This document shows positions 9,001 through 15,000 of a stretch of 64,000 bases of DNA, one piece after another; within the stretch, counting starts at the first letter, position 1; each line of letters starts with the position of its first letter. The position numbers are program-made. Location: the NCBI RefSeq assembly GCF_030013205.1, contig NZ_CP122649.1; one strand, written 5' to 3'. This stretch comes from Escherichia coli. Lineage in GTDB: Bacteria > Pseudomonadota > Gammaproteobacteria > Enterobacterales > Enterobacteriaceae.

Positions 9001-12000
9001 GGCTAATAACCCAGAATGAAAAAATAAGCGATTTATTAGATAGGACTGAATTAAATTTAAATGGAGTGCAGCCGGACTCAGTTTAAAAACACTCCGCGCT
9101 AAAGGCAGAAAAAAGCCTTCCGAAAGGGAAGGCTTATGCACTACATCAGGAAAAGAACTATCGCTGCTTCTGGAGCGCGATATACGCTGCGAAAACAGCT
9201 ACCAACACCGTCATGAAGTAAACTAGATATGAACCAGATTGCCAGACATTAACGCCAAAAAACGAAATTAATTTTCCGTCCGGGATAACAGAAAAAATCA
9301 GGTTCCAGAATCCAACCAGAACGACCTGAGAGATAATCATTTTACCAAGCGATCCCAGTTCATGAGCCGCATACATTGCAGCCATGACAAATGTCAGAGC
9401 TACCACAAGCAGCGCAGACAAAGCCACAACCGAAATGCTCAGGCCGACGGATGTAAACAGAATGGCATCTTTAAAAGTCAGACCTGTAAAACCCCAGATC
9501 AGAATGGCTAAAATGAAAAACATAAGGATAAATTTCACTAGAATTGCGTCCCTCTTTCGGTGGCAGAGTGTCGGTCAGGATGCCTGTGGCGAGGCAACTA
9601 CAGACAGAATTTAACACAAAAAATTTAATTACAAATCCGTTCACAGGCCTGTTTCAATGATTCTTTGGTATGGCTATGTGCGGCCTGATTTAACAATGCC
9701 CGGATGTGTAGTTCATCATGACCGTCAGCTACAAAGAGATTGATTTTACTTTCAAGGCGGCTCATGGCTTCGTAGAGTTTTGCCTCTTTATTGTTCTTCA
9801 TAAAGCGAAGAATGTAATCCGCAATAATATGCTCTGGTGGCGTTTTAATTTCACGGCAGCGATTGCTTGTCATGAGTTTTTCCTCAAGTTTGTGGCAAAA
9901 TGGCACCATCTCATTTAAGCCACCCTTTTCCGGTTGTATAATTAATTTGACCTGCTTTACACAGCGCCAGCAAACGGCGATCAAGAATATGCGACGGTTG
10001 CGGATTGCTTTCCCCGGCTGCAATCCGGTGACACTCTGCTTTGATCTCTCCGGCAAATAATGTCGAGAACGGCGTAGGAACTGGGGTAAGAATTTCGTTG
10101 AGTGCCCTGTCCAGCGCCAGATACTTATCCATATTCATGTCCTTGCAGGTAATTGAATGGATGGGGTTTAAATTTATTATACTGAATCGAGTTACTAAAC
10201 TAATATCCTTCAGGATGAAGAAAGGAATCATCCACCTTCAGTATGTATTCGACATATAGGACACGTCTCTAAAATTTTTCGCGTTTTCGCGATTTACACC
10301 GACAGGCCTACCAGTCACCACCTTCGATATGAAGTTGCGTCGCAGAAACAGCCACCATTTCCTGCATTGGCTGGTCATGCTTGTTATGACTACTCCCAAG
10401 CAGTAGGCTCACCTTGCCGTTAGCGGAATAAAACATAGCATCAGGAAAATGCTCTCTGACTTCCCCCAGCAATGTGTGCATCGACTGAGTCAGTCGGTAG
10501 AATCGACGTGCGGCAGTCGGCATTGCATCATCAAGGAGATCTCCGGCGTCGCCGTCCCCGCTGTTTATGAAACTCAGTACCTTATCTTCGTCCATTCGAA
10601 CCTCTTTTTCAGTCATGTCATATATATCCATTGAGATATCTGTCAGCCTGAGCAACGACATCAGGCTGACCTTCGCTCACCCGGTAATAACGATGGCCTG
10701 TTCCAATTGTGGCTGGCGATCCCCCCGCAGCGCTACCGACTCCTGGAGGCGTGCGGAAGGCATCGTCATTGCCTTAAACCCCTCATCCCGCGAACGCACC
10801 AGCATCCCCCACGAATGGGTTTCACAGACATCGTTCTCGAAATTGGGTTCGGTCGACAGCAGTGATTCCATCTTCGGTTCGATGTGTACCGGCGCAATGT
10901 TTTTATAAACAGGGTGAACACGACACTGTTCAGACGCTTGTGCTCGGTAGCTCCCTTGCGCCAGCAGCACGTCATGGGAAACCAGGTCATAATCTGTATC
11001 TTCGACAAAAGTCTTCAGGGTGTGCGTTATTTTGCCGAATCCTTCGATATTCCAGACGGACACCATCGTAAACTCTTCAAACGCACGGGGACTTTTGACC
11101 AAAAATCCATTCAGCGCCCTACGCCCCTTCAGCATCCCCACCAGGTATTGCTTGTTGGGATAAGGGCGCATCGCAACAAGGTCATTACCAGTCAGGCGTA
11201 GCGACAGTTCCGGGACGCTTACGGAATCCAGCGTGCAAAGATTTCCCATCGGATGCAGGATTTTTGGTACAAGGTGCAAAAACATCGGTATTCTCCTCGT
11301 TTATTAAGCCTTCAATTATTGTGCCGTCGCCTGATGTATTTCGAACCAGAAGACAACCGGCTTTTCCGTGACTTCAATTAACCCAAATCGCTCTGCGGTT
11401 CTGAAGTTGACGCTGTATGCCCTGGCGCGTTCTACCTGGCGGCTTATTTCTTTCCTCATGCCTTCAACACTTAATGCACCTTTAAAGAGATTGCAGGGGG
11501 CGCAAGCCGGAAAAAGATTTTCGATTGCATGCAGTTCAGGGTGCATGACCTTACCGGTACTTCGAGCCCGGTGTGTCACTCGACTTCCAGCGGGGGCTCT
11601 GACCATTTCAAAATCCCGCCTCACCGGTTCAACATGATCGGCATGCCAGCCTTTTTCCGGCAAAGGACAGCCGCAGTAGGCACACCGACCGCCAAATTTC
11701 AAACGCAGTTCGGCTCGTTGCTCTTTGGATATTTTATTTTTTGGTTTTGAAAATCGCCCATCATCAGATTCAACCTTCGGGAGGAGTTCTGAAAAATTGG
11801 GTAATTCGATTACTGCGCCTTTGTTATTTAGAACTTTCACCGGACCTCCCAACCATATTAAGACGATTTTTTATTTATTTTCCTGAATTAGTTTTCGAAT
11901 TTTAATCAGGTGTGGTCGGCTTAATTTGCATAGCTGTTCGGTCGCGGCATCCAGAGTGGGAAATACATGGGCCTCATTAATATCCAGTGTCCAGTATTTC

Positions 12001-15000
12001 GCTTTACCTTCTCCCAGATCAGATTCAAAGTAATTCCGCTTTACCCCAATCTGCTTTGGTCTTCCATTAATTCTGACGATTTCATGCCGCTCGTCGAAGA
12101 TAAAACCCTCTCCGACCAACGTCAGGAGGACAAAAGGGCCCTCGGCCTTTTGCGTACCCAGCGAACTCATCTCATTATTCATACGACCTCCCCGGTAATA
12201 CGCTTAAAGTTGACGACCCAGACCCACGGGTTGGCCTGCCAACTGTCCTCGCCGTACGTGTTTTTCCAGAGGCTGCGGAAGCCAAGAAAGTGCTTATCGC
12301 CAAGAACACAACATTCTGTTGGTGCGCCTTCAGCTTTGGCATCTTCCTCGCTGATGGTATTTAACCGCTCTACCCGCAAATCGGTAATTTCCAGTGCAAT
12401 ACGGCTGGCCCAGCGAGGCATATGGATTGAAGGTGTCCACGCACCTTCGAACTTCATATTTTCGGTACGAGGCTTCCAGTCGGCCTCATCAGGGATCGAC
12501 CACAGCCCATAATCCCCCGACCGCTGTTCGCAGCTCGCCCGGTAAATGCGGGCTGCTTCAGTCCTGTCCATCACGATGTTGTCATTCCAGTCCACCGCGC
12601 ACGCATCTTCATTCCCGAGCAATGAAAACGCCTCACGGACCGTAATGCGGTCGCCAACTACGCCGTACGGACAAGGCCGAAGCGCCGAGTATGGCTGGGT
12701 CCCTGTTGGAAGCCACCAGTCATGCGTGTGCCCGCGATGTCGCGGTGTTTGCGCAGGCCTTATAGACCATTCATCCGAACTATATTGAGGCTTTATAATC
12801 CGCCGCGTCTGTGTTTTCTGATCTGCCAGAATTGCCCGGACCATTTCATCATTAAAAAGCATTCCACGTGTCTTCACTGTGCTGACTCCTTTCACACATG
12901 GTTCACACATTGAGAGGCCTATCCCTCTTTATCAGCCAGGCATACCGAAACTGTCGGTAGTTTTACGGGAACGGGCAACTGCCCCCCTACCTGATAAAGT
13001 GGTGTTCTCCCCCAAAATTAATCGTATTCCCCATCCACTACCGGCTCAGTCGTAATTTCATATTTCACTCCGCCGGGTACATCCAACGCTTTAGCGACGG
13101 ACTCACACAGCAATGACAAATCATTCAGGGTCATTGGGTATTCAACTTCCAGGCTGTGCAGTGCATTGGCGCTGGCAGCAGCAGCCTTGTCAGCATGACA
13201 GGCATTAAAAACGAAAACGGTGGTTTTTTCTTGAATAGGCATAGTGCAATCCTCTGAATAATTAGCCCTGTGATCAGGGCGGTTTTTGATTAAATTTAAA
13301 TGTTCGTTTTCAATAATTAGTGAATCTGTTAATCGGGTTGTGACTTATCATTTTCTCCAACCGAAGTGCTGTCGAGAAATGACCATTCTTGTTTGGGGCT
13401 TTTATATAATGCACTAGCCTCAGTACTCATCCATGACTCACAGGCTTTATAAGTCATGCCTTCCTCTCTAACGCGGTCCTTAAAATACGCCCAGGCTTGC
13501 AGATCAAGCGGCTGATACTCTTTCAGCGACTGGTCAAGCCTTTCCTTCCAGATTTTCTTCCGATGAGTAAAATGAGGAAAAGCCAGGAATGCATAACTAC
13601 CTGCAACAAAAAAAAAGAACAGGAGTCCGCCCCATAGAGAATGTTTGAAAAACACCAGTCCTGGGAAAATCCATGCCACAATGGCAACAAATAAAAGAAG
13701 GTGCTCCTTCCCAGTAGGTTTATTAAAATGCCAGGAAATTGCAATACACTTTAATTTACTAAAGTGATTTTGTTTCTCCTTAATATCGGTCATATATCAG
13801 TCCTTACTTATAAAAAAATGGTTATTATTAGTCTGATGTAAAAGTTACTTTTCAAAACAGTCCCTTTAACGAATTCCGCACCTGCGCTCATTACAACACA
13901 CACCATTCGGCGCTTTTTCCGTTAACGGGGCTATTTTCACGTTTTTTGCACGTATGTCTGATTTTGCTGGTGGGCTCACGCCAGCACGCGGACCATACGT
14001 TTCAACAGAGGCCTTAACAACGCCGCCGTCCTCTCCCGGCATTCATCCACATGCCGGAACCCCGTCTTTTTCGAAGACTGGGGGCCGGATAACATCCGCA
14101 GCTCCCAGATGACTTCCCGTAAGGTTCCTTCGCGCTCCGGCGAAATACACCCGGCTAATGTCTCCAGAAAGCGTTTTCTTACGGCCCGGTAATACAGACG
14201 TTCTTCCGGTTGCTGTGACGAAATCCGCAGGTTACAGAGGGTCAGGACAGCGTCAAGAGTCCTTGCCTTCAGTTCGTCTCCCGTCCGGGCCAGATGTAGC
14301 TGTTGTTCTGTCTCCAGTTGCGTCGTTATCCACCCCCCCAGAGGGGTTTTGTTGTAGGTGTGCAGTGCCACACAGGCCGCAACACAGCACCAGAAGCGCA
14401 GTTTCTGCCGCTGCCCCCGCAGTTTGCGGGCTACGAGCAAGCGATAATCGCTGTCGGTCAGGATCTTGAAACGGCGGCTGGCGAGCAGAGACGGCAGCGG
14501 CGTCTGGTCGTTAATGCCAAGACGTGAATAGGCCTGCCCGCGTTGAGCGAGTCGATGGTACACCGCACCTTTCCCCCGCGAAATTCGGACGGCGCCGTAT
14601 CTAAGCAGGTACTGTGCCGCCGCCACAGGGGTAAACTCACCGTCAGACACACGCTGGCGTAATCCGTCATATTCATGCCAGATAATCCAGGATGCCGTGT
14701 CTTCATCGACCGTCAGCTCATCCTCTTCTTCGAATGCAACGATGTTCAGGCCTTCCCCGCTACTCATCAGACTGCGGGAAGCTCGCTCATCCTCCCGACC
14801 GTCAAAATAGGCTATTTCGGATGACGGATCGGACAGCCCGTCAAATGACGTCCCGATACGGCCTTCCGGCAACTTCATCCAGCGTGGTGCTGGCATCGGC
14901 GTGCGGGGTACTGGTTGCATAGCTGGCTCATCGTCGAGAAGATCCAGTGCCCCCCCTTCCCACACCTGGCGGTAAAGTTCAATGGCACGAAATGGGCGCG

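Follow-up and report, generated by a model that had tools for sequence, protein, structure and literature searches.

Do an ASCH-like gene and an HNH endonuclease gene that lie in one tight row on a conjugative plasmid form a single modification-linked system, or are they separate passengers that have become neighbours? The question is raised by a locus in a 64,000-nucleotide stretch of Escherichia coli DNA (RefSeq contig NZ_CP122649.1), which as a whole is called here the window. An earlier note on this DNA had described three tightly packed minus-strand open reading frames (ORFs), namely an ASCH-like gene, a gene for a protein of 103 amino acids (aa) and an HNH gene, and had suggested that together they could be a defence or anti-defence module. 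The three ORFs are present as described and the 4-bp overlap of the first two is confirmed, the stop of the ASCH-like gene and the start of the 103-aa gene sharing the ATGA at 12179-12182. We propose, with a probability of about 0.6, that the locus consists of phage-type accessory genes which IncHI1 plasmids acquired independently of one another and which stand in a row, co-transcribed but not one system. Under this proposal, the ASCH-like protein would most likely work alone as a hydrolase acting on an N4-acylated cytosine-type base within a nucleoside or nucleic acid, the HNH gene would be a self-contained, free-standing mobile gene of the homing type, with homing as its presumed activity, and their contact in IncHI1 would be a lineage-specific juxtaposition.

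The backbone that carries the locus is, by its sequence, that of an IncHI1 (R27/pHCM1-type) resistance plasmid. Indeed, the 5.9 kb around the three genes are 100% identical to pHCM1 of Salmonella Typhi CT18 (NC_003384.1, 8287-14187), and the block is at least 99% identical in 212 pHCM1/IncHI1-type plasmids, for nearly all of which conjugation is predicted. The genes are real and not chance ORFs, with cluster counts of 41,136 for the ASCH-like family (50%-identity cluster representatives at E<=1e-3), 849 for the HNH family and 37 for the 103-aa protein; these last 37 clusters are all at least 63% identical and all come from IncHI-like plasmids.

Within IncHI1 the genes co-occur, including in a variant with 92-95% protein identity. 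The related IncHI2 plasmids keep the gene of a DUF6012 protein that follows the HNH gene (62% identity), the HNH gene itself (80%), an extra 65-aa ORF, the 103-aa gene (70%) and orf74, a 74-aa ORF that in IncHI1 lies upstream of the ASCH-like gene (68%). They contain no ASCH gene and no PP-loop domain, and the 809-aa PP-loop protein encoded further upstream in IncHI1 is reduced in them to residues 331-806. As the orf74 homologue directly abuts the 103-aa gene in IncHI2, the ASCH gene represents a clean presence/absence difference. DUF6012 is co-conserved with the HNH and 103-aa genes in IncHI1 as well as in IncHI2, and in the IncHI lineage the HNH gene would travel with these two, the 103-aa gene as an orphan. 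A survey centred on the ASCH gene, covering 80 viral loci that carry its closest relatives (38-64% identity) and 5 kb on either side, retrieved the HNH family in a single locus, 4 kb away, and the 103-aa gene in none. Co-conservation of the three genes, which the earlier note had itself set beforehand as a refuting test, thus fails in IncHI2, in the viral ASCH loci and in the HNH loci, and the system-level reading is left unsupported.

The PP-loop enzyme about 1 kb upstream had also been offered as a possible part of the module. The 809-aa protein combines a DndC-like PP-loop half (approximately residues 76-460; PADLOC DndC at 2e-37; NCBIfam DndC at 8e-33, which does not reach the curated cut-off) with a C-terminal half (residues 331-806) that exists alone in IncHI2 as a 470-aa protein of 71% identity (locus L085 of our comparison, 7612-9024). 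This C-terminal half is a conserved part of the backbone; because it is the only part kept in IncHI2 and is not of PP-loop type, the link to the PP-loop enzyme was rejected.

Considering both identity contrasts and breakpoints at gene boundaries, sequence comparison points to the ASCH and HNH genes being separate mosaic modules that are exchanged independently. Where the two are paired, the ASCH proteins have only 26-57% mutual identity and their nearest relatives (43-75%) occur in loci without HNH, and the paired HNH proteins have copies 96-99% identical in loci without an ASCH gene. Two collinear prophages (L153 and L140) differ in a block of about 1.4 kb that holds the ASCH gene, with homology resuming 15 nt before the HNH start, and L123 has the HNH ORF alone, at 93% nucleotide identity, in common with L120, L114 and L191. 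The distance matrices of the two families correlate weakly (Spearman 0.38, computed on pairs that are non-independent). An HNH-associated clade of ASCH proteins was also considered and rejected, given this divergence and the unpaired nearest relatives.

The nature of the ASCH-like protein had to be established by its fold. No ASCH match (PF04266) was obtained in Pfam even at E<=10 but only a spurious match to DUF3143; no precomputed Pfam domain was found among the homologues, no model was matched in NCBIfam or PADLOC, and a search of PDB sequences returned nothing, whether the query was the single sequence or the family profile. The protein matches PHROG 874 (unknown function) at 6e-77, and some members of its family are called "ASCH domain-containing protein" by NCBI and "Morphogenetic protein" by UniProt. 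Fold comparison, by which alone it was identified, gives an ASCH fold (PDB 2z0t, 1t62, 1xne, 3iuw, 5guq), with a five- to six-stranded beta-barrel and a helix after strand 1. The ASCH-like N-terminus of the earlier note was therefore right as to fold and too narrow as to extent, since the fold spans the whole protein.

Aligned with hhalign, residues 1-103 of YqfB, the N4-acetylcytidine (ac4C) amidohydrolase of E. coli (PDB 9kyf, 1te7), run along residues 12-238 of the window protein (numbered in its 243-aa form, from ATG 12910), which is more than twice as long as YqfB owing to two insertions at about 41-82 and 95-170. The alignment pairs K32 with K21 of YqfB, T35 with T24, R37 with R26 and E194 with E74. 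Among 78 diverse family members, K32 and R37 never vary and T35 and E194 are at least 90% conserved; the octapeptide GxKxx(E/T)xR is present with the family consensus G-R-K-T-Q-T-R-R, which is of the GKTR type. In YqfB, Lys21, Thr24 and Arg26 are essential and Glu74Ala cuts turnover 100- to 1000-fold (PMC6972931). The mechanism proposed there has Thr attack as the nucleophile, with Lys as the base, Glu as the acid and Arg forming the oxyanion hole. According to a preprint, ASCH proteins fall into GKTR (YqfB-type) and GKER octapeptide groups, and 19 of 19 diverse ASCH proteins tested removed ac4C from tRNA (bioRxiv 10.64898/2026.02.27.708502). The Lys-Thr-Glu triad and the Arg of the oxyanion hole thus occupy equivalent positions in the window protein. 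Because this full YqfB-type catalytic set is kept, the protein is probably an enzyme rather than the mere reader of modified bases implied by the earlier note; by analogy with YqfB we infer that the same roles would fall to Lys32 (base), Thr35 (nucleophile), Glu194 (acid) and Arg37 (oxyanion hole), and that the substrate would carry a comparable acyl mark. We suggest that the gene is a YqfB-type ASCH core of phage origin enlarged by the two insertions.

Caution is required on this enzymatic reading. The window protein differs from YqfB in having Asp30 at the first Gly of the octapeptide, a position held by Gly in at least 90% of the family, and its activity could be altered by this replacement. 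The insertions hold near-invariant motifs of their own (CPYG..GD.LWVRE and PSIHMPRWASR). Moreover, we found no functional work on PmgT or PmgT-like proteins in the literature.

PmgT of phage P1 ("putative morphogenetic function", phrog_874) is a true homologue of the window protein. The P1 record reports 55% identity of PmgT to a hypothetical protein of S. Typhi, most likely the ASCH-like gene of pHCM1. In P1, pmgT lies behind a C1-controlled operator and ahead of pmgU and pmgV, and no HNH gene adjoins it, unlike the arrangement in IncHI1. Other relatives of the window protein occur in the nin region of a lambdoid prophage (73% identity), in a P22-like prophage (64%) and in P1-like phages (49-57%), all without this HNH. 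The neighbours of the family include Ead/Ea22-like, RecT-like, excisionase, DksA-type zinc-finger, DNA methyltransferase and integrase genes, with no fixed partner. We regard the "morphogenetic" label of PmgT as unproven; the PmgT-like family looks like a YqfB-type ASCH hydrolase family whose insertions let it escape Pfam, and the window protein escapes the PDB sequence search as well. A PmgT-like homologue in Escherichia phage vB_EcoM-813R1 (L002 4004-4732, 57% identical) is labelled "3'-phosphatase, 5'-polynucleotide kinase", which appears to be a mis-annotation.

The HNH protein is, as judged from its residues, a complete and catalytically intact nuclease. It matches PHROG 2118 ("HNH endonuclease") at 3e-54, and the motifs listed in the earlier note (CxxC, HxDH, N, CxxC) are real and invariant across the family: C53, C56, H66, D68, H69, N108, C113, C116 and N117 are identical in 30 members, giving C-x2-C, W-H-A-D-H, N and C-x2-C-N. 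These supply the catalytic His (D-H), the structural Asn, the metal-binding Asn/His and the Cys4 zinc site of this subclass of HNH (beta-beta-alpha-Me) endonucleases. A C-terminal domain of about 50 aa is conserved as well. The Pfam HNH match is sub-threshold (E 0.17), a weakness explained by an insertion of about 30 residues that splits the motif; the NCBIfam retron HNH model scores 20.7 bits against a cut-off of 52, and PADLOC gives weak PtuB/HNH motif matches only (E 5e-4 or worse).

The family comprises two forms. The short form, of about 140 aa, belongs to phages and prophages and has about 62% identity to the window HNH; the long form (173-194 aa, 59-98% identity) has an N-terminal extension of about 35 aa and is found mainly on large plasmids, and also on the prophage-like contigs L097, L104 and L105. 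Short-form genes lie in a P22-like ea region (gp24 of Salmonella phage g341c), beside terminase (Bas77) and in the trbC-traN gap of F-type tra operons. Long-form genes lie in a lambdoid prophage, on a ParM plasmid and on Hha/H-NS/KfrA plasmids, with no ASCH gene in any of these settings; lambdoid nin regions and large MOBH plasmids are further contexts of the family. The g341c gp24 and F-type tra proteins share about 60% identity with the window HNH across the core of about 140 aa and agree with it in the invariant residues (Cys4, DH, N and N). Unlike these free-standing phrog_2118 genes, the IncHI HNH has the extension and is flanked by the 103-aa gene and DUF6012. Presence and absence of the gene are sporadic and homology is restricted to the endonuclease ORF, as for homing genes, so that by analogy the HNH gene behaves like a minimal mobile unit of the kind represented by free-standing homing endonuclease genes. 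The small ORF that accompanies it upstream also seems to differ from element to element. In one F-type plasmid (L092 4142-4513), a hypothetical protein of 123 aa that is unrelated to the ASCH-like and 103-aa proteins precedes the short HNH.

The adjacency of the two genes is nevertheless not confined to IncHI1, and this weighs against our proposal and in favour of the earlier note, since the order ASCH-then-HNH recurs in several unrelated prophages. In a survey centred on the HNH gene (80 viral loci with 10 kb flanks, 72 of them analysable for neighbours, and 48 species-level genome loci), an ASCH-like gene was present in 7 of the 80 viral loci and stood directly upstream on the same strand in 5 of the 72 (about 7%). 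Three of these pairs overlap by 4 bp in an exact ATGA (L164, L155, L131), and a 77- or 85-aa ORF lies between the genes in the two others (L153, L123). The same upstream arrangement occurs in Serratia (L194) among the species-level loci, and an ASCH-like gene lies 1.5-3.2 kb upstream in a Klebsiella/Raoultella MOBH plasmid and in the metagenome-assembled genome (MAG) L214. Finally, in Burkholderia phage Magia an HNH gene of a different family overlaps the start of an ASCH-like gene. Were positions uniform in the 20-kb windows, one would not expect 5 of 7 cases to lie one or two genes upstream. However, Ead/Ea22-like genes are the commonest neighbours on both sides (before HNH in 24 of the 72 loci and after it in 32), and as both families cluster beside them the true null is much less extreme than the uniform model. 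We suggest that both families favour the same hypervariable accessory regions, from which occasional ASCH-then-HNH pairs would arise in prophages; this shared habitat, or homing of the HNH gene, could explain the recurrence, and to a facultative functional link between the two proteins we give a slender chance.

Two observations on plasmid arrays belong here. In a relative of the Raoultella-type plasmid (L102 7067-7438), a truncated 123-aa ASCH-like gene is followed by an unrelated 103-aa ORF and then by HNH, and L102 looks like a deletion derivative of the longer ASCH-to-HNH array of L100 and L096. The ORF at 9911-10231 (minus strand) of the window, ending in ...LDRRLLALCKAGQINYTTGKGWLK, is 38% identical to an 89-aa gene (L096 18428-18697) of the Raoultella MOBH plasmid, where it and the end of the ASCH-like gene overlap; by this match it is a third gene common to both plasmid arrays, in a different order.

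Homing aimed at the ASCH gene itself offers a selfish and non-cooperative account of the pairs, in which some HNH lineages would home to the conserved 3' end of the ASCH gene (coding for NPWVWVIEFKR) and insert just downstream of it. Such a process would fit an HNH ORF that is a minimal mobile unit and beyond whose ends homology stops, as well as the position of the ASCH gene, which within about 3.5 kb is always upstream of and co-oriented with this HNH family, in three cases with the exact overlap. The C-terminus is also among the most conserved stretches of the ASCH family, and in Magia a second HNH family abuts an ASCH-like gene. On the other hand, most HNH copies are flanked by Ead/Ea22-like and not by ASCH genes, the 103-aa gene separates the two in IncHI1, the HNH gene occupies the same place in IncHI2 without an ASCH gene, the gene order is reversed in Magia and any cleavage site is hypothetical. 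We consider this explanation unlikely.

Quite unlikely, in our view, is that the ASCH enzyme serves as a factor of host takeover or establishment, for instance by erasing tRNA ac4C or a base modification linked to defence, with the HNH protein as an optional helper that degrades the nucleic acid so unmasked. The C1-controlled operator in front of P1 pmgT and the place of the family in early or accessory regions, beside DNA methyltransferase and recombination genes, would suit such a role, as would the erasure of tRNA ac4C by ASCH proteins (bioRxiv 10.64898/2026.02.27.708502). The family has no conserved partner, though; a survey of anti-defence genes in plasmid leading regions includes neither ASCH nor phosphoadenosine phosphosulfate (PAPS) reductase, and MOBH occurs in it in one entry of the reference list only.

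A facultative two-gene cassette of prophages, IncHI1 and related plasmids, in which a PmgT-like ASCH reader or eraser licenses or directs the downstream HNH, appears very unlikely. If it existed, mobile elements would be using in their conflicts a modification-linked nuclease that is split and acts in trans, and the small variable ORF that in some cases lies in between (103, 77 or 85 aa) would serve as adaptor or inhibitor.

The split type IV (modification-dependent) restriction or anti-defence pair, with ASCH reading a modified base and HNH cutting the marked DNA, is likewise very unlikely: ASCH does belong to the PUA-like superfamily, whose EVE, SRA and YTH members are readers fused to nucleases (PMC11037411; PMC7641849), the genes are translationally coupled in IncHI1 and their order recurs in unrelated prophages, but the reader role of ASCH is a prediction so far unconfirmed by experiment (PMC11037411), and whereas reader and nuclease are fused and the reader is non-catalytic in the EVE-HNH enzyme VcaM4I (PDB 6yex) and like type IV enzymes, here they are separate genes, neither fused nor consistently co-encoded (the ASCH gene absent from IncHI2, HNH in 1 of 80 close ASCH loci) and independently exchanged (near-identical HNH genes without an ASCH gene, diverse paired ASCH proteins with unpaired nearest relatives), the ASCH-like protein keeps its hydrolase residues, and the curated defence models of PADLOC and NCBIfam do not recover the locus, no PADLOC model matching the ASCH-like or the 103-aa protein.

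Our result is therefore mostly corrective. As the operon of a reader plus a nuclease is not a conserved system, defence screening on a wrong hypothesis is avoided, and the adjacency stays as a small, well-defined question between homing and cooperation. At the same time, the analysis gives a fold and a testable chemistry both to a protein so far called hypothetical, which is encoded on hundreds of IncHI1 resistance plasmids, and to the PmgT "morphogenetic protein" family; if these proteins remove ac4C or a related acyl mark from host RNA or from DNA, temperate phages and plasmids would possess a widespread activity that is as yet unstudied.

The positions of the genes are given in Table 1. The anatomy drawn in the earlier note was right apart from the 5' ends of the two long ORFs, which had been over-extended. 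The ASCH-like gene most likely starts at GTG 12877 (232 aa) and not at ATG 12910 (243 aa), a choice based on the AAGGAG 7 nt upstream, on the agreement of RefSeq and on the MKERPILF-type N-termini of homologues. For the HNH gene the likeliest start is GTG 11840, preceded by GGGAGG (174 aa), rather than TTG 11852 (178 aa). The 103-aa ORF has GGGGAGG before its ATG, and its stop lies 30 nt before the HNH start.

Table 1. Genes of the locus and of its flanks, with their positions in the window.
Feature	Position	Strand	Remarks
ASCH-fold protein, phage P1 PmgT / phrog_874 family, 232 aa	12179..12877	-	start GTG 12877
103-aa ORF, function not assigned, IncHI-type plasmids only	11871..12182	-	start ATG 12182
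HNH endonuclease, 174 aa	11316..11840	-	start GTG 11840; phrog_2118 match
DUF6012 protein, next gene downstream of HNH	10677..11285	-	RefSeq; IncHI1/IncHI2 comparison
74-aa ORF (orf74) upstream of ASCH-like gene	13018..13242	-	IncHI2 comparison
809-aa protein, DndC/PAPS-reductase-like PP-loop N-terminal half and separate C-terminal half	13976..16405	-	NCBIfam/PADLOC

From about 2 to 21 kb of the window every gene is on the minus strand. RefSeq names both the ASCH-like and the 103-aa genes hypothetical and the HNH gene "HNH endonuclease signature motif containing protein"; it places DUF6012 downstream, and small hypotheticals and a "phosphoadenosine phosphosulfate reductase family protein" upstream. 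Between the genes, the coding (minus) strand has neither a promoter-like nor a terminator-like site, and the single terminator-like match within the ASCH gene (12427-12450) is on the plus strand. A GC-rich palindrome, GCCCTGTGATCAGGGC, at 13265-13280 of the window, terminator-like on both strands and located between a 154-aa ORF and the 74-aa ORF, could mark the start of the transcription unit that holds the ASCH and HNH genes. An antisense ORF of 181 aa (11967..12512, plus strand), which overlaps both the 103-aa gene and the 3' region of the ASCH gene, was taken as spurious because it lies wholly inside conserved genes of the opposite strand.

The 103-aa protein had no match in Pfam, NCBIfam or PADLOC, and the DUF6012 protein had none in NCBIfam or PADLOC. 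A match of the 103-aa protein to phrog_30913 is probably due to plasmid sequence mis-called as prophage, as tblastn against phage genomes gave no match. Its AlphaFold (AF2) model is poor (predicted local distance difference test, pLDDT, 58.6).

A paralogue of orf74 (57% identity) lies a few kb from it in the plasmid (approximately 6941-7129 of the window; L001 4628-4816), and a second copy is also present in the 92% variant plasmid (L086 8834-9022). Lastly, a 3-kb contig filed under "MAG: Bacillota bacterium" (L184, JAEWTL010000036.1) contains IncHI1-type ASCH, 103-aa, HNH, DUF6012 and orf117 genes; its HNH is 100% identical to that of the window and its other proteins match at E 1e-68 to 1e-175, and it is almost certainly an enterobacterial plasmid contaminating a Bacillota bin.

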